64,000 nt of DNA. Source: Octopus vulgaris (lineage: Eukaryota). Under the pieces are notes generated by a model. It had not been told where the DNA came from. It searched no databases and worked only from the letters and a program-made list of their open reading frames with translations. The first letter of the stretch is position 1. Each line of letters opens with the position of its first letter. The translations under genes were made by a program, and so were the position numbers. The stretch spans positions 55,242,001 to 55,306,000 of the forward strand of contig OX597831.1 of NCBI GenBank assembly GCA_951406725.2, written 5' to 3'. Positions 15,006 to 63,274 of this stretch are shown here, piece after piece.

Positions 15006-16022
15006 GTCATATTTTTAAATTCAGCCCTCAGAAGTTTGTTCGGCAGCTAATAATTCAACAAATATCTTACAATCTGACTTCTATTCACTCACAGATCAAG
15101 CACCAATATTTTTCCTCAATATTTCCTGTGTTTCTCTAGAAAATAATCAACAATTTTTTTTTCCATCATAAAACCATAAAAATGGTTTTCAAAGACCAAA
15201 AACATTATTGTATTTTACATTTACAGACTTGACAAGAAACACAACACATAATTATGAGAATTGTTAGCACAAAAATAGCAGGCAATTAAAAATAAATAGA
15301 TAGAAATAGATTTAGCCTGAAAGCAGCTAACAAGAAAGGGAAATATTATTAAAAAAATAAAAATCAAAGCTAAACAACAATGATTATAAAGAAATTGAAA
15401 AAAACAAAAAGAATTTGTCCTCAAAGGTAACAAAAATATTGAAGTCCACTTAACTCAATATGAAAAAAAATGATAAATTTACAGCTATGAAAAAATATAA
15501 ATCAAGCTTAAATAATAAAATCTAAATAATAAAATCTACAAAATAACAGTTTGCTTGGAGGAAAAAGAAAAAAAATCATTTTCGGATAAGTCAGGGCAGC
15601 TATTGAGATCTTTTAAAAATGAACACATTATATAAAGATCAAAGGCAGAGAAATCAATACAGCTCATAAAAGCTAAATAATATATATTTTATATATAAAT
15701 TTGTGGAATACATTTTGGAATAATCTATATCAAGTAGCAATCATTTTGACAAACAAAAATAAATAATAAAAATAAAAATAATGCTTCTCTTTACATACTC
15801 GGTAAGATTAATTAAAAAACATACGATGAAAGAATGACTAAAGATGCAAAACAATAGAATTGAGTATTCTAATAACACTGAATGTTTCAGGTAAAAGACC
15901 ATGGGTAATTTTGTTTTGTTTCTCACATTGAGAATTTCAACACAAGAATTATAAACAAATGTAAACCACAAATTCTGAAGCATTAAACGAAAAAGGATAA
16001 AGCTCTTGCCAGTAGTATCATT

Positions 16023-16766
16023 ATGATGAATTTGACTAATGCTTCGGCTGTTTCCGAAGCTAATGATTACCAGTCAATTAGGAGTACCATGAACCAACAG
16101 CAGCACCGAACGCAATCTTTTACAGCTGTATTAGTCTTAACAAGCCTTTTCGCTTTATTTACTGTAAGCGTTACAGGGGCGATCATTGTGTTTTGTAAAA
16201 AGAAAAACACAGTGTTTGCCTTGCAGAAATGTGAACAAGATTCAGATATCGACTGTGAATTGGATGATTTCAACACTGAAATAGAAATCAGTGATGACAG
16301 CACAGATGACTATTTGGTTCCAATGTCGAAGCGATCTGCAACTTATCCTAATTTGGAAATTGTTTGCAACAGGAACTACAGACCACATGATAATATTGAA
16401 AGCAACAAACAAAAAGACACAACTAATGTGTCCAAACACATCCCACGGGCACATACATTTTCATTTGAATGCTATGAATACACTCCAATAAAACTTAGTA
16501 CTACAAGCAAAGACAACAAAAAGAAAGAAGGTGAAAAGCAAGTGATAAAAGTACAGAAAAATCAAAAGTCCAAAACAGTTTATCACCAACTGAAAACTTC
16601 AAGTAAAGAGTGTTTGTCGCCAGAAAATCCAGGAGATGAAAATGACAGCAAATGTTTAGGTTATTCTGTGAATAAGGACAACTGGAAAAGTTCACCAGAA
16701 AATGATGCAGGCATGGCAGACCCTTTTATAGTTGATAAAGCTATGTTATTACAACAAAGTCAATAA
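16023..16766 (+). CDS. Uncharacterised 247-aa single-pass membrane protein, nested antisense in a CEP78 intron
   Basis: Only long non-repetitive, non-TE ORF. In-frame TAA upstream at 15984-15986. N-glycosylation sequons NLT/NAS at the N-terminus, hydrophobic aa 33-57 followed by CKKK, acidic patch, several YxxPhi motifs. Lies in a SINE-free block. Confidence 0.75.
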   Translation: MMNLTNASAVSEANDYQSIRSTMNQQQHRTQSFTAVLVLTSLFALFTVSVTGAIIVFCKKKNTVFALQKCEQDSDIDCELDDFNTEIEISDDSTDDYLVPMSKRSATYPNLEIVCNRNYRPHDNIESNKQKDTTNVSKHIPRAHTFSFECYEYTPIKLSTTSKDNKKKEGEKQVIKVQKNQKSKTVYHQLKTSSKECLSPENPGDENDSKCLGYSVNKDNWKSSPENDAGMADPFIVDKAMLLQQSQ

Positions 16767-19700
16767 AATCTTGCAAACAATTGTTCTCAGACACACACAC
16801 ACATACTTCAGTGTGTGTGTGTGTGTGCACATGTGTATACAGTTCTACTGTTCCTCATAGCCATGCCATCTTTCACGTTGAGAAGAGATCTCTGGAGGTT
16901 AAGTCTGAACTCTTACTCTCAGGAACAGCCAATAAATGATGCATATGATGTAAAATGATGCCAAAATGTGCCAGTGGATTTCTTCATCAATATCATTTTA
17001 AAACAATAAACTCATAGAATACAAAAAGTCAATACAAAATTAAGGTAGTTAAAATTCTACTTAAATACAAATTATTTAGAACATTTTATTTTATTTTTAA
17101 TTAACAAAATGTTCAAGGAAGAGAGACAAGACACAGAGATGAGTGAACAAACATAAAAATTAGAGAAAATTGGATGCAGTCAATAGCCATTACAAGTACA
17201 AAATGATATAAAAAAAAAAGACCAAAAACAAAACACAGAAACACTAATCATGAAAAGTGAAGCAATTCAAAATAAAGAATAATCAATAATGGAGAAATTT
17301 TTCCTAGAGAAAATGAAATACTAAAAAAAAAAAAGAAAAGAAAAAAAAAAAAAAAAGAAACAGTTAATTAAGAATTTCATTATGAATTTGCTATTAAAAT
17401 TTGCAACAGTGTGAAACAATGATCCATTTGATGCTCTGATGAGATATTTTGATGTGAGATTTCATTAAAACCAACAAGGCAGATGGGAACATATTTAAAG
17501 ATAGATTAATAAAATAGTATGCAGGTTAACTAATATAGTGAGAAATTTAGAGTTAAGAGCCTGATTTAACAAGAGTTCTATTCATGTTCATGATTATTTT
17601 ATTTTATTTTATTTATTTATTTACTTTTTATTTGCTAAATTGTCTCGATTCAATTTAGTTGTGAGCAACAGTAAATGATAGACGACAAATAGCAGTGTGA
17701 TTAAAGTACACATGGAAGAAGCAAAAAAAAAAAAAAAATTTTCAAACAAAACAAAGCCTTAAAACTGAAGAAGTTGAACAATGTGTGTCTTAAATGCAAA
17801 GACATTTCAGACAAAACTATTTCAGGAAATGAACCATGTATGAAGTCAGAAGGTTTTGTTAATTATGTCTACAAGAATAATAGGAAAGGTCAACACAATT
17901 GCTATAAACATGGAAGATATAAATGAAAAAAATAAAATGTAGAATGGTTAATACTCATTGAACTAAATTGATTTTAACGCTTACAACTGAATAACTTTTC
18001 CCATAAAACTATATGCTGTTTTTACAACAATGTCTACAATACTGTAGTAGTGATAAACAAAGGAAAACAAGCCAGATTTGAAGTTGATCAAAGAAATGGT
18101 CAACTGAGCATGAAGTGAGAACTGAAAAGCTTGAAAGAATTGTGTCAAAAACACAAGACTATTAAATGAAATGAGGTGTGAGTTTGGGTCAAGAAATAAA
18201 AGTTAAAACTGAAGACATGATACTCTAAAAAAAACAACTAATATTAAAGTATATTAAAGAAAAACTGAAGATGTTATATTGCTTTTTTCAATGGAATATC
18301 AGTCTACAATCAAATACCCAACTGAGTTCTTTAAAGAATTGCAAAAACAAAAATGGAAATTTCAACCTCTCAATCTATCCATATAAATTATGAATATTTT
18401 TGCCTCCAAACAATTTGTTTCGCATTACTTGTACAAATCCAAGAAAGTTCACCATCACTCAAAAAATTTTAATAACCAATGTTTTGTAGTGAAGAAATTT
18501 ACCTTCCGTCTTACTAATTATGAAAGAAAATATTTCAAGTAATTATATTTTGGGATTTTTTACTTTCTTTTGAAGCTGCTGTTTCCATTTAAAAAAAAAA
18601 CAAAAAAACATAAACATCTGGTATTAAAGTGTTTTCATAATAGAAACAAAAGATCTGGTGACTGACAGAGCTATTTCCCTCGTCAAAGGAAAAAATATTG
18701 AGAAATTGCATTCTCCAATATGAAAACATATTTCAAAACATTATAATTATTAATGATTTAATATCATTAAATTATTAATATCAAATTATTACTATTATTT
18801 AATTATAATAATAGTTTAATTAAAGAATTTAGAAGAAAGACATAGCAAGAAATCATAATAAAATGTGTCAATTAAATCAGTCTTAAGTCAATCCTAGACA
18901 ACAGAAAGATTTGACTGTTAACACTTTGTTAGCTGATCATGAAAGATAATGTGCTTAATTCAATAATACAGAAAGGTTTCAAGACAACGGAAATAACTGG
19001 TTGTTATATAAACGAAGGGTAATAATATTTTCTTAAGAAATAGGATATTTTCTAATTACTTTTAACAATTAGCTCTGATGGACAGATATAAAATGTTTCA
19101 ATTGAGAATGTGCATAAGACTTTTTATTTCTTTAACTATGTTTTAACATTGTGGAGTTGCAGCTTGTTGAATCAAACAGGATATCAAGCTGCTGGTCAAA
19201 GTGACTATGGTTCATGCCCCATCAATGACTACTGTACTGTGCCCATATGAAAGGAACTCTTAACCTGACTGTAATTAGGTAACTTGGGCAATTAACTAAC
19301 TGCTCTAAGCAGCAAGGGCTCTGGCATCATTGCCAAGTACTTTGTTAGCTTGCAGTGCTGAATTCAAACTTTCTCATGAATGTTTCTTGGAGAGGGATGT
19401 GCAATTATACCAGGTTAGCTTGCCATAAATACACAACATGAATACAAATGCTTCAAGCAGTGCCTCTTTAACCCAACAACTCATGGGATTCAACATATAA
19501 TTTACAAATTCTCTATTTATTAATCAATAACATTTCTTTTCTTTACAAATATACTAATATATTTTGGCTCTCATTGGAATCATCAGTAACAACAGCATTT
19601 TATGTCTGCTTTTCCATGCTGGCATGGATTGGATGGATTTTTCTGAAGAAGTGCTTCACAACCAGACACCCTTCCTGCTATTAATCCTTTTAGTCACTGC

Positions 19701-20024: not shown

Positions 20025-21930
20025 ACATTTGCACAACTTTGTTCAGTCCAATTCTTATATTACAAACGTTTAGCAAATAGGGTTTTCAATTCATTTTATT
20101 TATATTTTTAGAAATTAAAAATAATAAAATGATTTTAATATAGGGCAAGTTAAAGAAAAAAAGTTGATATAAACTGACTAAATACCTCACAATAAATATA
20201 TAGGTTCTTCCCTTTACATTCTTTAAGTTAAAATCTCATGAGGGTTGAAATTAGACTTTCATTCTATCAGAATTAACACAATAAGTGCTCATCATGAATT
20301 AAGGATCATCAATTTAATTATCCAAACCCTTCTCCATCTTTTTGTCTTTGTACTAATGTAAAAAAAAAACCCTTTGAGTTATCTAAAAGAAGTTGACAGA
20401 AATGGTAAATCAGTAAAACTTAGTATTTCATTTTGTCTTTATACATCTTGAAATCAAATTCTAGCAAAAAATGATATTGCCTTTCATCTCTCCAAGATTA
20501 ATAAGTACCGATAATAGCAACATATTTGATCTCAAAAAAAAGAAAAAGGAGAAAACCAAACTGGCCTTGAGTCTAGTCAAAAGAAATCAATATTGAGCTG
20601 ACTAACATTGCCTACTTATTAAACCTGGCAAGTGATGAGTAGAGAGTATAAAATTATTCCATTCATATTCTCACAAGATTTTTCTGAACTATTTACTTCA
20701 TTGAAACTGTGATCTGAAAATTATGATTTTTGCCTGTTCAACAGATTGCTGATGAAAATATTTAATTATCTTTGACAATTGCAGTGGTGACACGTTACCA
20801 AAAAAATAAAAAAGAAAGAAAAAAATCAAATTTAAAATTTAATGATGGCATTTGGATGGCAACATTTTTTCCCATGAAAATTTCATCAAAAATTTTAAAG
20901 AAATTAAATTTCCTTTACTTTTCTATAATGGAAGTATCTGTTATTTATTCTGATTTTCATGTTTTCCATTATATGATATTTTTCTTTTTCATCCGAGGTT
21001 TATCAATATTCACATAACAAAACAAGAATCACAATATTTAAATACCAGATCAACCTAGATTGAGCAGATCTGTGATCAAAGGCATTCTAGCCATGACTGC
21101 TCTGTCATTTTAGGAGTATCTAATGTATCCTTTCCCTTTTAAGATTGTAAGGTGTGGAACAAGAGAGATTTGGTTGTTGCTTTAGTATGTTTAGCGTATC
21201 TATGAAGCTTTATATGTTTTTAATTCTGTTTAATAATAGAAAATCTCCATAAACTATTTATATTAGCCCATAGCACTTAGTGACCTGGATAAACTCAAAA
21301 GCATAAAGTAGCAGATAACCTAAACCAACTGTGATTTTCACTTACTATAAGGATTTTGGTAAGACATACAAAGAATCTTAGAGATCTTCTCAGAGATAAA
21401 ACCAACTCAAATGATAAATAAAAACAATATATTTTTGCTTACATAATTTCTCATGGGTGCTTATGGGAAGAACTACAAGGATAAAGTAGGATTACTTCTG
21501 GGTGCGGGCATAAAAAGGTAGTGCAAAGATCTAATCAATCTATCAGTGGAGAATTAAAGGTGTCAAGATTGATAGAAATTCTATGAAGCAAAAATTTAAA
21601 TCATACGTCATAATTACATGACATTTCCATTACAGACAAACAAAGAATAATCAAAGATAAAAGTTAAGCATAGCTAAGTGAGAATTTGATTAATCTAGCC
21701 AAATATGGCTGCCTGTACTAGAATAAGTTTAAATATCATTAAAAACTAAACTATCAAACATAACATAAGGAAGGAAGGAAATATTATTTGCTCAGGAAAA
21801 GGGGATGTTATTTACAGCAGGTCATTTCCAAAGGCATTAACAATGTAAGTGAAGTTTGAAAAACCAAATTTAGCACTTCAGTTTAGTACCAATGAGAACC
21901 TACTGCTACAACACCTACTGGAAAAAGAGA

Positions 21931-28990: not shown

Positions 28991-30184
28991 GACTATGTAG
29001 CAGATCTCCTACCTCATTAAACACCTCGGCTATTAATGTTCAATGTTTTAGATTCATCTGATTCATATTACGTTGGTCAGTTTGTTACTTGATATGAAAG
29101 AAGAGGGCAGAGAGGAGAAGAGAGAAGGGGAGAAGAGCAGGGGAGGAGAGTAAGGGGAGAAAAGCAGGGAAGAAGAAGAAGAAGAAGAAGAAGAAGAGAT
29201 AAAATAACAAGAGAAATGAAGGAAAGGAAAGAAGGAATGAAGGAAAGGAAGAAAAAGGAAGGAAAGAAAGAAAGAAAGAAGGAAAGAAACCAGGGCTGTA
29301 AAAAGCAGAAGTTAATAAATGCTTCAATTAAGTAGCTAGTTTGGTTCATCTGACAAGATGTGTTTGTGTTCACTATTTCACTGCCATTTGTATTACCGTT
29401 GGCCTGTTTCCACACCCATATTTTTCCCATCGCTCTCATCACTCTGCCTTTGACATCATTGAAACATCTGTATTGAGAAAATAAAGTTATGAAGCAGTTC
29501 CTATTGTTCTGCTTTATTACTTTGTCACATGGCCTTGTTTTTATGGAATCGGATTCCCGTTGTTGCATTTCCAGCACTTTCTGTTTGATCTATTCAGTTC
29601 AATCTTTAATGTTTCTATTAATTTCCATTGTCTTCCTGTTTAAACAGCACTTTGAACGTTGCAAGATGCCATTGTGTTCTCATATACCGAGGGAGAGAGA
29701 GAGAGAAAGAGAAAGAGTTGATGATATTCTGTGTCAGTCAATATTTTCAATCTCATTGTTTCTGTGGCAAGTACACTTTAGAGTCAAATTTGTGACCAAT
29801 GTTATTATGATTCTGAATCGTAGCAGTTTTATTACACATGCAGTGTTAATGTCACTGAGAAAAGGTACAAAATACATAAATGAGCATTACAACTCCAATT
29901 TCTCCAGCGTTGAAATTATCAGATTTTGCTACTACCACAACAAGGAAGCGTGTACATGAACATGCAAACTTCTAGAAATAGCGCCTTTTATCTTTTACTT
30001 GTTTCAGCCATTGGACTGCAGCCATGCTGGAGCAGCACCTTGAAGGAGTTTTTTCTAAAGTCAAACAGATCAACCACAGTATATATTCTTTTTGTCTCTT
30101 TTGTTGAACTGCTAAGTTATTGGGATGTAAACAAATCAACACTGGTTGCTAAGTGTTGGGGGAAGGCAGACACATATGTATATG

Positions 30185-30833: not shown

Positions 30834-31493
30834 TTCGTATGGATGAGGATAGCTGTGTGAAGTGTCACACCCTAACAGTGAAGGGAACCTGTGGAAGAGG
30901 TAGATCCAGGATGATACGGGATGAGGTGGTGAAGCACAACCTTCAAACATTGGGCCTCACAGAGGCAATGACAAGTGACCAAGACCTTTGGGGATATGTT
31001 GTGCTTAAGAAGATCCAGCAAGCCAAATGAGACCATATCCATGGCCGATGCCCGTGTCACATAACTGGCCCATTTAAAAGTACCCTTCAGTTGTCGGGCA
31101 ATATGCTGTGCTTGAAAAGACCTTTTGAATTAAGTTAAATTGTAATCGTGGTTGATGCCAGTGCTGCCTTACTAGCACCCGTACAGGTGGCATATAAAAA
31201 GCACCATTCAAGCGTGGTCGATGCCAGTGCCACCTGACTGGCTCCCATGCTTGTGGCACATAAAAAGCACCATTCGAGTGTCATCAATGTCAGTGCTTCC
31301 TGACTGGTCCCCGTGCTGGTGATATATTAAAAAGCACTATACTCTTGGAGTGGTTGGCGTTAGGAATGGCATCCAGCTGTAGAAACCATGCCAGATCAGA
31401 TGGAGCCTGGTGCAGCCACCTGGCTTGCCAGTCCTCAGTCAAACTGTCCAACCCATGCCAGCATGGAAAGCAGACGATGATGATGATGATGAT
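30834..31493 (+). mobile_element. RTE LINE 3' end (C-terminus, 3'UTR with ~65-bp internal repeats, (GAT)n tail)
   Basis: VKGTCGRGRSR...DEVVKHNL...DLW; three TAAAAAGCAC units; tail gatgatgatg. Confidence 0.8.
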
Positions 31494-36289: not shown

Positions 36290-36393
36290 CTTGATGATTT
36301 TAGCTAAAATATCAGCTCCTTTCCAACTGAGGTTACAGCCAACCAGGTTAATGGCATTTAACGACATGTTGTTTTTTATGGCTCGTCCAATAG
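36290..36393 (-). CDS. CEP78: CEP78 internal coding exon (probably exon 4), 104 nt
   Basis: gttacag|CTATTG...ATCAAG|gtcagt. With the phase-1 join it reads TIGRAIKNNMSLNAINLVGCNLSWKGADILAKIIK, resembling CEP78 [34 protein letters not shown]. Confidence 0.9.
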
Positions 36394-42087: not shown

Positions 42088-42160
42088 TTTGTAAACCATT
42101 ATCTCCAATTTTGCAATGTGCAAGGCAGAAATAACTAAGAGACAAGTTTTTATTTAGTCC
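42088..42160 (-). CDS. CEP78: CEP78 internal coding exon (probably exon 3), 73 nt
   Basis: tttctttcag|GGACTA...TTACAAA|gtaagc. Reads GLNKNLSLSYFCLAHCKIGDNGLQ plus 1 nt, resembling CEP78 [24 protein letters not shown] (LRR). Phase 0 in, phase 1 out. Confidence 0.9.
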
Positions 42161-47769: not shown

Positions 47770-47939
47770 CTTTGCAATGTAGTTTATACTTGATTCTTTG
47801 AAAGCAATTCCTTGCAACCTAAGGCAAGCTAAAGCTGGAGTAACACTAAGACACTGTTGGAGTGCGTTACATAATTGATCTTTAATTTCTTTGCTTGCAA
47901 TGGCTGGTTTATGTCTTTTGGTGCCAGTTTTATCTTTCT
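47770..47939 (-). CDS. CEP78: CEP78 internal coding exon (probably exon 2), 170 nt
   Basis: Minus strand: ttttttttcag|AG...GCAAAG|gtaagt. Reads KDKTGTKRHKPAIASKEIKDQLCNALQQCLSVTPALACLRLQGIAFKESSINYIAK, resembling human CEP78 as recalled ([34 protein letters not shown]...ILAK). Ends in phase 0, matching the next exon. Confidence 0.88.
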
Positions 47940-49518: not shown

Positions 49519-51998
49519 TGTTGTGGCGAGAGTCACGACACCTCCTGTAAGAACAGACTAAATAGTAGCGGTCTGAGTCAGAGACAGAAAAAGAAAGTAG
49601 GCATTAATTGCAGGAAGTTGTTTTGGTAGTTTGTCAGAATACCATTTGTTGGCTTGTGTATAATTCATGGAGTGTTTGTTGGATTGTTACATTGTTGTTA
49701 CCCTGCTTCATTATATATTTCATTGTTACTACAGATTATAGTGTAAAAACTTATCATCATAAATAGTGGCGATACTACAATTATTGGTGATGAGTAACTG
49801 CATTACAATAATTGGCAACAAGGATTCAAAGCTGATGCAGGTCAGTTAACAAATTTTTATGATACAAAGTTGTGAATGATGGAAGACCTATTAGCTTCTA
49901 TTATACAGTTGCAAAAACAGCAGCAAGAACAGCAACAGGAGTTGCAGAAACAACTACTTCAGCAACAAGAAAAATAACAACAGTTAATGGAGCTATGTCT
50001 TAAGGAGTTCAGAAACACTATAAGTTCGTTTTTGCCAGACAGCATATAGAGCTCAATAACAGAATTCAGTTATGACCCAGAGGAGGATATAATGTTTGCA
50101 GTGTACTTTAGAAGGTGTGAAGAAATCTTCAGGGAAGATTGCAAGTTGCAGACAGACAACGAAAAAGTACCACTATTATTGAGTAAATTAGCGCTGGCTG
50201 AACATGAAAAATATTGCAATTTCATACTACCTGGAAAACTAGTGAAATTTGTTTCCAGGAAACAGTCAAGCTACTATTAAAAATATTCAGTGATAAGAGT
50301 TCCCTATTTAACACTTGATGGTAATGTAATCTAGTTAAAAAAGAGGATGAAGACTTTGTCACGTATGCCAGGAGCATAAACTAAATGTGCAAAAGGTTTA
50401 AACTGAAGGAACTAACTCTTGATATGTTTAAGTGCCTCATTGCACAAGGGCTTATGGAAAACAAAGATATGTGACAATTTTTCAACTGGTTTGAATGATT
50501 GTCTAAAAATGTGCCACTATTGACTGCCTACACCGAGGGATATGTTTGCAAAATTAAATGGTGGCAAAATATTTTTGAAACTGGATCTGTCTGATGCATA
50601 TCTATAAATTAAAGTAGATGAAGAATGCTCAAAGCTTCTAACAGTAAACATGCACAGAGGACTATACAAATATAATAAATTACCATTTGGTCTGAAGGTT
50701 ACACCTGCAATATTTCAACAGGTTATGGATGTGATGTGGCTGGACTGTTAATTTGAAGTCCCATACCTCGATGATGTATTAATTAAAAGTGGATCTTGTG
50801 ATCAGCATATTGAATATGTAAAGTGTGTTTCTCAAAAAATAAGAGACTATGGTTTCACATTCAGTGAGGAGATATGTGAACTCTTTTTACCTAAAATTAA
50901 ATATTTACGACAAATTACACATAAAAATGGAAGACAACCTGACCTGTCGAGGGCAGACGCAATTAAAAATATGCCTCCCCCAACTAATATAGTGACATTA
51001 GAAGCTTTTCTTGGCCTAGCAAACTATTATCAAAATTACATACCAAACATGTATGAATTGAGAGCTCCACTTAATAATTTGCTAAAGAAAGATGCCAAAT
51101 GGAATTGATCAAATAACTATCAAAAAGCATTTCAAGATATTAAAAAAAAATATTAATTTCGGATTTGGCACTGGCTCATTTTGATACTGCAGTATAGTTT
51201 GTTGTAGCTTCAGAAACTTTTGAATCTGGTGTAGGAACAATTTTTCTATACAAATATAAAGACAGTAATATGAAGGTGGTGGTCCATGCCTCTGACTATA
51301 GCAGAAAAATACTACAGTCAGATAGAGAAAGAAGCTCTAGCGATTATTTTTGCTATGAAGAAATTTCACAGATTTCTCCATGGTAGAAATTTTCAATTTT
51401 CAGATCAAAGAAAGGAATTCCTACCCATACAGCTAACAAATTACAACACTGGGATTCTATATGGTTAAAGTATAACTTTAAGATGGAGTACATTCCTTCT
51501 AAGAAAATTGGCCATGCGGAAAAGGAAATTAAAAATTATGTGTAATGTCATTCAAGAGTTGCCAGTGACTGTACAAGATATAAAAAGTAAATCAGTAAAG
51601 GACAAATACATCATAAAAATGAAGGAAACCTTAAAAAATAAACAAAAGAGAAATGTGAATGCAAACCATTTTTCACTCTGCAACGTTGTATTAATGTATG
51701 CACAAAGAGTGGTAGTACCAACCACACTACAGAAACGGATATTACATGAATTTCTTAGTGGACACCCAGGGATCTCAAGAATGAAAACAGGAAGTCGTAA
51801 GATATCGTTTTGGTAGTTTGTTGGAATATCGATTGTTGGTTTGTGTATAGTTCATGGAGAGTTTGTTGGATTGTTACATTGTTGTTACCCTACTTTATTA
51901 TATATTTTATTGTTACTACACGGTTATAGTGCAAACAAGTATTGTCATAAATAGTGGTGATACTACAATAATTGGCAATGAATAACTATATTACAATA
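49519..51998 (+). mobile_element. Decayed, internally deleted Ty3/Gypsy (Mag/K02A2.6-like) LTR retrotransposon
   Basis: 5' LTR 49519-49810 (TGTTG...CAATA); partial 3' LTR about 51788-51998; TSD GTTGA/GTTGG; PBS-like TGGCAACAAGG at 49813. Contains gag (EFSYDPEED...YCNFILP), RT (LDLSDAY, LPFGL, YLDD), RNase H (YSQIEKEALAIIF) and integrase Zn start (HPGISRMK), with stops and frameshifts. Splits a SINE. Confidence 0.92.
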
Positions 51999-54670: not shown

Positions 54671-55921
54671 AAAGGCAGCAAGCTGGTAGAATTGTTAGCA
54701 TGCCAAGCAAGATGCTTAGCAGCATTTCATTCAGCTTTACACCCTGAGTTCAAATTCCACTGAGGTTGACTTTGTCTTTCATCCTTTCGGGTTCAATAAA
54801 ATAAGTGCCAGTTCTGCACCGGGGTCGATGCAATAGACTTACCCCCTCCTCAAATTTGTTGGCCTTGTACCAAAATTTGAAACCATTATTATTGGTCAAC
54901 TAAAGGCGGCAAGCTGGCAGAATCATTAGCATGCTGAGCAAAACACTTAGCAGGATTTCATCTAAAGGCGGCGAGCTGGCAGAAACGTTAGCATGCCGGG
55001 CGAAATGCTTAGCAATATTTCATCGGCCGCTACGTTTTGAGTTCAAATTCCACCGAGATCAACTTTGCCTTTCATCCTTTCGGGGTCGATTAAGTAAGTA
55101 CCAGTTACGCACTGGGGTTGATATACGAGGGGCGTTCAATAAGTAATGCCCCTGACCCACTTCCCATAGCAGTAGAGCAACGACACTTGGCCCAGTTATT
55201 AGTCTTTTCCTACATTGGAACTACCCAGAGTTATGCATTTCTCCCATCGTTTGATACAGCTCTGGAGACTGTTTTTGTAGAAGACCCCAGCTTGGTCCTC
55301 CAACCACGACGTGACTTCAGAAATCAAGGCTGCATCATCTGGGAAACGCTTTCCTTTCAAAATCAACTTCATGGCTGGGAAGAGGTGAAAATCAGAGGGT
55401 GCAAGGGGAGGAGTTCATAGCTGCATGCCTGTGCTTCTGATCTGGCGACACGCAAGTTGTGGACCGGAGCGTTGTCCTGCAGGAGGAGGATGCCTTTGCT
55501 GATCTTGCCCCGCCTCTTGATTTTGATAGCTTCTCTTAATTTCCTCAAAAGTGAAGCATAATAGGCTCCTGTAATTGTGGTACCCTTTGCCAGGAAATCT
55601 GTCATCACTACTCTGTCCTGGTCCCACCCCCTCCCTCGAAAATGCTGGCCTTGCACCAAAATTTGAAACCAACATTTGTTGCAAACATTACAAGGGGTAA
55701 GTAGAGGTGGCAAGCAGACAGAATTGTTAGAATGCCAGGCAAAATGCTTAGTAGCATTTCATCCATCTTTACATGTTGAGTTCAAATTTTGCCAAGATAC
55801 ACTTTACCTTACATCCTTTTGGGGGGTCAATAAAGTAAGTACCAGTTGAGCACTAAGGTTGATGTAACTGACTAAACCCCTCCCCCAAAATCGCTGGCCT
55901 TGTGCCAAAATTTGAAACCAA
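54671..55921 (+). mobile_element. Cluster of four same-orientation SINE family B copies, one interrupted by mariner
   Basis: Heads at about 54671, 54902, 54964 and 55703. Confidence 0.8.
55126..55625 (-). mobile_element. Truncated mariner transposon (3' part with one TIR) inserted in a SINE
   Basis: TA+CGAGGGGCGTTCAATAAGT terminus; ORF 55369-55713 includes DFLAKGTTITGAYYASLL...LLLQDNAPVH, typical of the mariner catalytic domain. Confidence 0.88.
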
Positions 55922-60930: not shown

Positions 60931-62132
60931 TGTATTGCTTTGTCTTGTACAAGATGCAAGAGCACCATCATGATATAGTGTGTCCTGAGCATTTCCAGAC
61001 CTGGTGGAGCTCAGCCCACCAGGTGTAACCACAGCCGATTTCTTCCAGAAGAGGGAAAGTCTGAGAAATGTGAAACCAGTATTTTATTTTATTTGACCCA
61101 AACAAACAGAAGGCAACACTGACCCCAGTGGGATTAGGAGAGATTAAAGGGTCAGAATGATTAATACAAAGCAATCTGTCCGACACTCTAACAATTTTAC
61201 CTATTGACTACAATGTATGTGAGGGGAGGGGTATGGCTGCATGGTTGAGAAATTTATTTCCCTACAGTTTGGTTCTGGATTCGATCCTACAGTGTGACAC
61301 CTTCAACAAATGTTTTCTACTCTAGCCCCTAGCTAGCCAAAGCCTTGTGAATGGATGTGCTGGTGTGTGTGTGAGTTGGTGTCCTCCTTCTCTTGACATC
61401 ACATTTGTTGTAAATGATTGTCACTGTCATACAGGCAATGTCGTTCATTTCCAATAATCCCTAAAAACAAACATACCTGGTCACAGGGAAATATCACCTT
61501 ACTTAAAAACAGGTGAGTTTTGGTGACTGGAATGGCATCAATCCATAGAAAATTTGCCTCAACATAATTCCATCCAACCATGCAAGCATGGAAAAGTGTA
61601 CGTTATGATGATAGTGATGATGATGGAAATACAGCATGTGAATATTCATATTGAGACATAAAGTGTTTATATTACATGGATCTGTTATATGGTGTGTAAC
61701 TGTATAAAGCTGAGGTAGTGAATTCCTCCCATGAGCCTTTCTCTCGTCTACCTCAATAAATCATTTGATCGCAGTTTTATTATTCTTCATTTGAGGTTAG
61801 ATTAACGTTTCAGAGTAATAGCATAGTTGAGATAACTGGTTTAGTTAAAAGATCAATCACCTAGAGACAATTATCACAACCAAGAATAAAAGAGGGTCAT
61901 ATTTGGTAGTAGCAGAAACATGTTTAGAAAGAGTTGAAGGAGGAGAAAAGTGCTGAGAAAAGTAGAAAATGACATGTAGTTTGGTGAGTCAGAAACAATG
62001 ATTGAATTAAATACTGTCACGGAAAAATAAAATTTTATAGACATAATAACAGAACACAACCGCTAATGTTGATTTACAAAGATACACAACTACAACTTTT
62101 TCTATAAAGCTGTAGAAAAAGTGATTCTAAAG

Positions 62133-63274
62133 TGTCAGAGAAACACTCTGGAACTTCTGGAGCTCTCACAGTCTCATCCGACCCTCACAATATGGATTTG
62201 TCCCTAACTCCAGCTGCAGTGACCAGCTTGTCGAGTTCCTTGAGGACATTACTCAGATTACTGACAGTGGCTCATGGGTGGATGTTGTCTACCTTGACTT
62301 TGCTAAGGCTTTCAACTCTGTGCCACACAAAAGGCTTATGGTGAAACTCTCTGCAATGGGTGTGGGGGATGACCTTTTTAACTGGTTGAAATCCTTCATC
62401 CTCAGCCGAAAGGAGGTAGTCACAGTTCTAGGACAGCACTCTACACCATATGAGATGTCATCGGGTGTACCACAGGGATCTGTCCTTGGCCCCCTCTTGT
62501 TTGTGGCATACATTAACGACATAGATGCCAATTTAAAGAATGCCACAGTATTGAAATATGCAGACGACATCAAGCTGTACCTTGAAATCAAGAGGACAGA
62601 TCCTGATGTCTACAACTCTTTCCTGCAATCAGACCTAGACACAATGCAGCAATGGATCACAGACTGGCAACTGAAACTGGCTGTGGACAAGTGTACCACC
62701 ATGCATTTTGGGAGAAAAAACCCTGCGTTCACATACTCCCTCCACAACACTGATATCAAGAAATCCTCTTGCGAGCGTGACCTAGGCATCACTGTCAGCA
62801 GTGATTTGCGTTGGTCAAAGCATATCTCTAAGATTGTCAGGAAGGCCGAGGGTGTCTTGGCATCACTCAGCAGGTCTTTTGTTAGCCGCTCTCCAGCCAT
62901 CTATTTAAAACTGTATACAGCTATGGTACGACCACACTTGGAATTCGCATCATCAGTTTGGAACCCCTATCTTGCACAGAACATTGACCTCCTGGAATCT
63001 GTCCAGAGACGTGCAACCAAACGCATACCCTCCATCAGACACCTACCATATTCTGAGCGCCTTGTTTCCCTGGGCATGGATTCACTGAAGCTCCGGCGTT
63101 TGGCGACGGACTTGGTAAACACCCACAAAGTTATCAACCACCTCACCAACAACAACACTGAACACCTTTTTGATCTCCATGTGTCTAACACACGTGGACA
63201 TGCCTAGAAAAGTCAGAAAACAATACAGCTCCCATGACTTTCGGAAACATTTTTCACGCTCAGAGTGCTGAAGC
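62133..63274 (+). mobile_element. CR1-clade LINE reverse transcriptase fragment
   Basis: Frame open 62134-63207: SQYGF, VYLDFAKAFNSVPH, GVPQGSVLGPLLF, YADD, VRPHLEFASSVWNP, TRGH. Truncated at both ends, no 3' tail. Confidence 0.93.

Follow-up and report, generated by a model that had tools for sequence, protein, structure and literature searches.

The window that we analysed is a stretch of 64,000 nucleotides of Octopus vulgaris DNA (contig OX597831.1, positions 55,242,001 to 55,306,000). On its plus strand, positions 16023-16766 hold an uninterrupted coding sequence of 247 amino acids, which runs from ATG to TAA behind an in-frame stop 13 codons upstream and belongs to an unnamed family of molluscs, annelids, and flatworms. 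This is the longest nontransposon open reading frame (ORF) of the window, as the longer one at 62131 encodes a reverse transcriptase. Among 60 copies of the window generated with an order-2 Markov model, the longest ATG-initiated ORF reached 185 amino acids (mean, 132), and the other five frames across the ORF contain 10 to 28 stops. The gene is present in a single copy: two genome searches returned one match each, and a search with a hidden Markov model of the core found no paralogue in the window or in the 147 kb of the remaining intron that surrounds the ORF. Its O. bimaculoides counterpart is a 247–amino acid RefSeq model (XP_052830449.1). Among five cephalopod-type sequences, 20 to 22 of the 25 transmembrane (TM) residues and 14 to 15 of the 15 juxtamembrane residues are kept, as compared to 17 to 47 of the last 87. 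This purifying pattern by region, together with the open orthologues and a length exceeding the random control, agrees with the earlier note on this DNA in that the ORF, judged from sequence, is a real protein-coding gene. A plus-strand transcript is predicted, with two AATAAA hexamers (16931 and 17005; 16931-17010, plus strand) as candidate poly(A) signals. Of 24 listed sequencing runs, 20 contain the stretch; RNA runs are not among them, and the result addresses expression in neither direction. The residues that had been singled out (N3, N6, C58, the KKK run, Y97, Y108, T145, Y153, and Y187) were all found at their assigned positions.

The whole coding sequence lies within one intron of CEP78 on the opposite strand, as determined by tblastn and genome search, and minus-strand CEP78 exons flank it on both sides, just as the antisense nesting had been described. 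Using tblastn, we located three of these exons in the window (47770-47939, 42088-42160, and 36290-36393, all minus strand). The 47770-47939 exon matches CEP78-like proteins and retrieved those of Octopus vulgaris (100% identical) and O. bimaculoides as well as an Argonauta protein, while the phase-0 donor of the 36290-36393 exon opens the host intron, 19.5 kb from the end of the ORF. The remaining exons were found in order and on the same strand, the next one starting at G000:C18:55,101,028 and running downward. The host intron measures 177,261 nt (G000:C18:55,101,029-55,278,289), with both donor and acceptor in phase 0, and contains no N; it is about seven times larger than the next largest CEP78 intron, the others spanning about 0.6 to 26 kb. 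As far as uninterrupted frames are concerned, we saw only transposon-type or low-complexity ORFs in this intron apart from the 247–amino acid ORF. In the deposited 238–amino acid CEP78-like model (P0113), the last piece comprises 17 codons at 21667-21717 (minus strand) and has a poor acceptor, and the true downstream exons lie 141 to 191 kb before the window start. The model is likely a shortened annotation caused by the giant intron or, less probably, a short CEP78 isoform.

In Argonauta, the orthologue and CEP78 are each listed with a contig of 20,957,048 nt. Around 37 other family loci, CEP78 was unmatched in 156 kb, with flanks of at most 5 kb. Our literature search retrieved no report of CEP78 with a nested gene. 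Antisense nesting within long introns is common; in Drosophila, nearly 10% of genes are nested, about 71% of them on the opposite strand (available portion of PMC5174743). The arrangement itself is thus ordinary, and the nesting in CEP78 is likely incidental. Elsewhere in the window, 29080-29959 contains two open frames (170 and 160 amino acids) that overlap on opposite strands, with plausible splice signals around 29355-29467 (minus strand), and that could represent another nested exon or a repeat. Transposon relics were also seen, both in the window (62131-63207 and 50752-51108, plus strand; 55369-55758, minus strand) and at L002:7142-9091 (minus strand). They consist of a DDE fragment of the mariner type and of RVT_1 reverse transcriptase frames, one of which has 650 amino acids and matches PHD weakly. 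A further feature of the window is a 66-bp tandem repeat of 2.9 copies with 78% identity at 31147-31337.

The gene had been regarded as an orphan, a view that no longer holds. A word-index search retrieved seven proteins, and a phmmer search of 1.84 billion representatives at the 50%-identity level gave 98 matches at E up to 0.001, of which 97 carry the juxtamembrane core motif. The remaining one (P0096, cadherin-like, E 4e-4) lacks it and was rejected as a chance match. Species names were looked up for 30 of the 98 clusters, and seven were named: O. bimaculoides, Patella, Haliotis, Ylistrum, Biomphalaria, the annelid Paralvinella, and the flatworm Protopolystoma. The word-index search added Argonauta and Acanthosepion. 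The names cover cephalopods, gastropods, one scallop, one annelid, and one flatworm, with none outside Spiralia and most members unnamed; the family is likely restricted to Spiralia. The lineage restriction supposed earlier therefore has to be widened, as the named members span at least Mollusca, Annelida, and Platyhelminthes. A profile search of a 5.8-billion-sequence collection, in which 7985 candidates were scored, returned eight proteins that were all already known and is uninformative for range.

Our alignment comprises 92 of 101 proteins, leaving out the nonmember P0096, P0005 with its divergent C terminus, and seven fragments shorter than 100 amino acids. In the tree, all named molluscs fall into one clade (43 sequences; SH-aLRT, 89.5), and the named annelid and flatworm fall into another; for motif counts, we used working groups of 45 mollusc-clade and 47 annelid-containing-clade sequences. 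Within the latter, P0011, P0016, P0022, P0028, and their relatives carry extra MNLHW (N-terminal) and FLKKSR (before the helix) blocks, and the clade has further RGxYQxMVVTAVLE, PPVINITY..PPxY, and VxFVxLPPK blocks, with no folded domain predicted. Several metagenome assemblies contain two distinct types of the family (for example, L030 with L050, L035 with L051, and L040 with L055; overall, L027-L041 versus L050-L057), suggesting a gene duplication in one host lineage, and the signature asparagine and phenylalanine described below are retained in both.

As the earlier note had stated, the family is not a recognised one. The octopus protein (P0001) and 25 relatives all scored under the Pfam cut-offs, and across the 92 members, none reached a reported curated cut-off or a strong E-value (best E, 0.0002). 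Subthreshold matches were FAM176 in 6 of 92 and GAPT in 2 of 92 sequences. Sequence searches of the PDB gave only the CD28 TM segment (E 0.75 and 2) and a viral polymerase subunit (E 2.6), and Foldseek returned no match for a mostly disordered model, a search that is weak by design. Searches for signature strings, LOC identifiers, and six accessions retrieved no paper, although the family may be listed in supplementary material elsewhere, for example in gene tables from single-cell work. The look-alikes proposed by a language model (Atlas) were the A36 family, LIME1, SCIMP, opalin, stannin, and TMIE, at 0.84 to 0.92 and thus below the reliability marks of the tool; LIME1, the vaccinia A36 family, and SCIMP scored 0.85 to 0.92 with fewer than 170 shared features. 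No Pfam profile match above the curated cut-off was obtained to LIME1, SCIMP, GAPT, FAM176, TMEM154, or TMIE, and the look-alikes reflect the generic stub-helix-tail layout. Apparently, the family has not been described before; it crosses phyla and combines a sharp signature with a generic architecture.

A single pass with a short, glycosylated N-out segment and no signal peptide had been proposed, and this topology found support in sequon asymmetry, charge asymmetry, and a single hydrophobic peak (19-residue Kyte-Doolittle mean of 2.2, starting at amino acids 36 to 40). The predicted lumenal or extracellular segment (amino acids 1 to 32; 16023-16118, plus strand) has no signal peptide and carries sequons at N3 and N6. 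Family-wide, this segment varies in sequence and length, while its sequons are conserved: 79 of the 87 N termini with at least 25 residues have one. We counted 212 sequons before the helix versus 100 ± 8 in shuffled sequences (maximum, 127), while the 289 in the tails did not differ from the shuffled 290 ± 15. Lysines and arginines were unevenly placed, with a mean of 2.9 within the five residues that follow C58 and of 0.5 ahead of the helix, and only a few family N termini contain a hydrophobic leader. With no cleavable signal peptide, sequons before the helix, and positive charge after it, these sequence statistics support a glycosylated N-out/C-in (type III) signal-anchor protein. AlphaFold2 modeled one helix at amino acids 18 to 69, with pLDDT of 87 to 97 for residues 31 to 60 and 55 for 61 to 70, and a disordered tail. 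A hidden folded domain in the tail was considered and dropped, as the model of an annelid-clade member is also without one. Lengths vary widely across the family, from 5 to more than 200 amino acids for the ectodomain and from 35 to 682 for the tail.

The TM helix itself (amino acids 33 to 57; 16119-16193, plus strand) is strongly conserved, with F43 in 96%, T47 in 84% (serine in the rest), T51 in 79%, and F57 in 97% of sequences. The periodicity of conservation peaks at 100 degrees with marginal significance (permutation P = 0.047). Residues F43, T47, F57, C58, and V36 deviate from a common direction by no more than about 55 degrees and T51 by 74, so that F43, T47, T51, and F57 would share roughly one helix face, a marginal assignment. 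Directly after the helix follows the signature C-[RK]-K-[KR]-N-[TS]-V-F-x-L-Q-K-[SC]-E-Q (amino acids 58 to 72; 16194-16238, plus strand), as defined by the alignment. N62 and F65 are invariant in the 92 sequences, and F43, F57, C58, K60, V64, and Q68 are found in 92 to 98%. In the conservation check suggested earlier for the region around C58, residues of the helix and of the 15 positions after it proved near-invariant across three phyla; the juxtamembrane cysteine, found in 95% of the sequences, is predicted to be palmitoylated. In L047-L049, the FCRKR segment directly after the helix is duplicated by a short in-frame insertion. The alignment further revealed an acidic segment (amino acids 73 to 92; 16239-16298, plus strand) with the pattern Φ-E-[LM]-D-D-Φ-N-T-[DE], of which the Φ-E-[LM]-D-D part occurs in 69 of 92 sequences versus 1.0 in shuffled ones. 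The acidic patch noted earlier at residues 71 to 96 is indeed acidic at 13 of 26 positions.

Beyond this segment, conservation becomes lineage specific. Because the shuffled controls ignore shared ancestry, all motif counts refer to sequences and not to independent events. RSATYP (amino acids 104 to 109; 16332-16349, plus strand) is, on the basis of motif conservation, a predicted 14-3-3 mode I phosphosite with T107 as the acceptor. The consensus of this mode is RSx[pS/pT]xP. The [RK]Sx[ST]xP pattern was present at a fixed distance in 39 of 92 tails as compared to 3.4 ± 1.9 in shuffled ones, and the RSxTxP type lies within 75 residues of F65 in 33 of 45 mollusc-clade but only 1 of 47 other-clade sequences. 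The octopus genome has 14-3-3 genes; intron-containing loci were seen on three other contigs, and an intronless 14-3-3 domain (L018, G000:C13:71788484-71789152) is a possible retrocopy. A second basophilic kinase–type site, RAHTF (amino acids 142 to 146, with T145; 16446-16460, plus strand), follows RSATYP at a distance of 38 residues and is found in six of the seven sequences of the cephalopod alignment; 14 of the 45 mollusc-clade sequences combine both types ([RK][AS]x[ST]F for the second). The idea of a basophilic-kinase site, raised earlier for T145, is strengthened by both motifs. The same applies to the suggested sorting signal, as YxxΦ recurs by lineage: YHQL (amino acids 187 to 190; 16581-16592, plus strand), a predicted signal of this type, is kept in five of seven cephalopod-type sequences, and 28 of the 47 annelid-containing-clade sequences have a similar Y[QHR]xΦ motif.

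The tyrosines gave a different picture. The earlier note had proposed a phosphotyrosine scaffold and had named unconserved tyrosines as grounds against it; they are indeed poorly conserved, and the scaffold is not supported as the conserved function. Y97, within DDYLVP, is found in 2 of 92 sequences, both octopod. Y108, assigned to a Grb2-binding YxN motif (YPNL), is found in 24% of the 92, and YxN is not enriched (41 of 92 versus 32.8 ± 4.5 shuffled); YPN reads YPD in four of the seven sequences of the cephalopod alignment, namely the decapod-type orthologues. Y108 is moreover the free position of the RSxTxP site, occupied by Y in 17, C in 6, S in 5, F in 3, D in 1, and M in 1 of 33 sequences, and the 43% conservation of the Y153 column is a mixture of two different motifs. 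Within cephalopod-type sequences, Y108, Y153, and Y187 are retained in five to six of seven; the motifs YEYxP and Y187HQ[LV] are preserved in cephalopods. Tyrosine makes up 3.0% of the tails. Four motifs exceeded all 200 shuffles, namely YxxΦ (77 of 92; maximum, 74), YxxM (23; maximum, 21), [PL]PxY (15; maximum, 12), and YQx[MLI] (24; maximum, 12), mainly owing to the G-x-Y-Q-x-M-V-V block (28 of 47) and the PPxY block of the annelid-containing clade. YxN, YxxP, PxxP, dileucine, ITIM-type, TRAF, and acid-preceded tyrosine motifs were not above shuffles in the 92 sequences, none of which has a juxtamembrane CxxC, and the C termini show no conserved ending of the PDZ type. A single YxxΦ per protein is no less compatible with a sorting signal than with a platform for SH2 domains.

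In this family, the helix face and the next 15 to 30 residues are fixed, while the tyrosines are free to change. This is most simply explained by a constant partner at and just under the membrane. We tentatively favor, at slightly less than even chances, a single-pass accessory subunit that serves another membrane protein, for instance a channel, receptor, or transporter, and whose tail motifs would set surface delivery. Beyond topology, the steps are what we infer. The helix would act as its own insertion signal, and the N terminus would be glycosylated, needing nothing but sequons. The F43/T47/T51/F57 face and the C58-Q72 segment may dock onto the fixed partner or a second copy, with C58 carrying palmitate. 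The disordered tail would hold lineage-specific switches, putatively RSxTxP and RxxTF phosphosites for 14-3-3 in molluscs and, in cephalopods as well as the annelid-containing clade, sorting motifs of the YxxΦ type, which could tune the amount of the complex that arrives at the surface or is retained there. This reading is supported by TM and juxtamembrane residues that are near-invariant across three phyla while ectodomain and tail vary widely in length, and by the threonine pair and phenylalanines about one helix face. The asymmetry of sequons and charge, the one confident helix without a folded tail, and the excess of [RK]Sx[ST]xP also speak for it, and BARP, described below, is a precedent for such an anatomy. 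On the other hand, we found no sequence link to a known accessory subunit (Pfam best, 0.0002; PDB best, E 0.75), the helix-face signal is marginal, some tyrosine motifs exceed shuffles, the 14-3-3–type site occurs in 1 of 47 sequences of the second clade, and the language-model look-alikes are adaptors (LIME1, A36 family, and SCIMP). A more specific version, in which a Spiralia-wide channel or receptor auxiliary family with no vertebrate or insect counterpart binds one conserved partner through the invariant TM face and N-x-V-F, with tail switches that each lineage added for itself (in molluscs, 14-3-3 sites in tandem; in annelids, YxxΦ together with PPxY), is unlikely as a whole.

The invariant basic and hydrophobic segment directly after the membrane would also suit a membrane-to-cortex anchor in the manner of glycophorin C, in which the basic cluster and the N-x-V-F strand bind a FERM-type domain and the glycosylated stub faces outward. 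The anatomy is alike, and the drop of AlphaFold2 confidence to 55 at residues 61 to 70 means that a helix is not required there. However, F65 lies only seven residues from C58, nearer than is known for FERM ligands, the conserved polar TM face is left unexplained, the syndecan/neurexin-type look-alike reaches only 0.86, and a conserved PDZ-type ending is missing. We consider such an anchor rather improbable. Only a small chance is likewise given to a sorting or ubiquitin-ligase adaptor of the Commissureless kind, which would bind a cargo receptor via the TM and juxtamembrane regions and send it to endosomes via PPxY and YxxΦ. The excess of [PL]PxY (15 of 92 versus 5.2 shuffled), the conserved YQxM, and a PPxY located 146 to 182 residues after F65 in nine sequences of the annelid-containing clade speak for it; yet the octopus protein has no PPxY, the looser pattern occurs in only two mollusc-clade sequences, and the docking step overlaps that of an accessory subunit.

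A phosphotyrosine adaptor like LAT, NTAL, PAG, or LIME, whose phosphorylated tail tyrosines recruit SH2 proteins, would account for the single TM, nonenzymatic tail, short ectodomain, and juxtamembrane cysteine, for the cephalopod retention of Y108, Y153, and Y187, for the excess of YxxΦ and YxxM, and for the LIME1, A36, and SCIMP look-alikes and subthreshold GAPT matches. We nevertheless consider it a slim prospect, given the missing CxxC, the scarcity of Y97, and the lack of enrichment of YxN, YxxP, ITIM-type, and acid-preceded tyrosines. Several full-length gastropod-clade members (P0010, P0027, and P0060) have one tail tyrosine, the ectodomains are mostly 30 to 130 residues long and sequon rich, and a mere tether would not need such strong TM conservation. 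Last, it is very improbable that the ORF is merely the terminal exon of a larger receptor gene or a nonexpressed remnant. There is a phase-compatible AG at 16011-16012, but the acceptor is weak (39% pyrimidine), the start sites of eight cephalopod-type proteins lie no more than two residues from this methionine, with N-x-T-N in common, and family members lack signal peptides and ectodomain folds. Furthermore, 37 other loci are open for 33 to 160 codons upstream of the motif, and the purifying pattern by region argues against a remnant. If the protein is an accessory subunit, the preferred reading, it could be a missing factor for expressing some mollusc and annelid channels or receptors in heterologous cells. 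More generally, the conservation across phyla of a 45-residue membrane-proximal signature that no family entry covers is a sign of an ancient and as yet undescribed interaction in animals without model organisms.

Among known systems, transmembrane adaptors (TRAPs; LAT, NTAL, PAG, LIME, and LAX) resemble the octopus protein in having one TM, a short ectodomain, a nonenzymatic disordered tail, and a juxtamembrane cysteine, and the tether type consists of a helix, a lipid anchor, and tyrosines (available portion of PMC3342071). The octopus family shares the single TM and the tail without an enzymatic domain. It differs in its longer, sequon-rich ectodomain, which has 32 residues here and at least 25 in 87 of 92 sequences instead of a few, in its strongly conserved TM and juxtamembrane region, in the single cysteine (95%) in place of the raft-type CxxC, which LAX also lacks, in having YxxΦ by lineage only rather than several conserved SH2-type motifs, and in the absence of a significant Pfam match. 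Glycophorin C and other FERM-binding proteins as well as Commissureless likewise have no signal peptide, a glycosylated stub, and a TM-proximal function; they differ in motif and have no sequence match, and PPxY is found only in part of the second clade. KCNE and TMIE share the N-out single helix, conserved polar TM residues, and a conserved juxtamembrane segment. TMIE is among the weak look-alikes (0.85 to 0.86), while no KCNE/TMIE-type chain was matched in the PDB at E up to 10 or among the 25 Pfam families listed.

BARP has one TM and a glycosylated N-out segment and regulates calcium channels (available portion of PMC4003244), and it is an accessory factor for α6β4 receptors (available portion of PMC11965388). 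Compared by description, with no homology implied, BARP/CBARP shares with the octopus family a single TM, a glycosylated extracellular N terminus, and a long tail without a known domain, while its Cav-β binding domains were not identified in the octopus family. The residue spacing of the BARP helix may resemble that of the octopus family. With respect to range, lophotrochin and trochin (Wu et al. 2020) are spiralian-specific genes with a short conserved motif, found in molluscs, annelids, and flatworms and without family assignment (available portion of PMC7441323). We did not find the octopus family among the 37 spiralian-specific genes reported there, as judged from 34 of 37 rows and from six signature strings compared to four supplements with cells of up to 400 characters (PMC7441323). 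It resembles lophotrochin and trochin in its short, strongly conserved motif, in the same phyla, and in the absence of a family assignment (PMC7441323), and is a further candidate for the short list of spiralian-restricted motifs.
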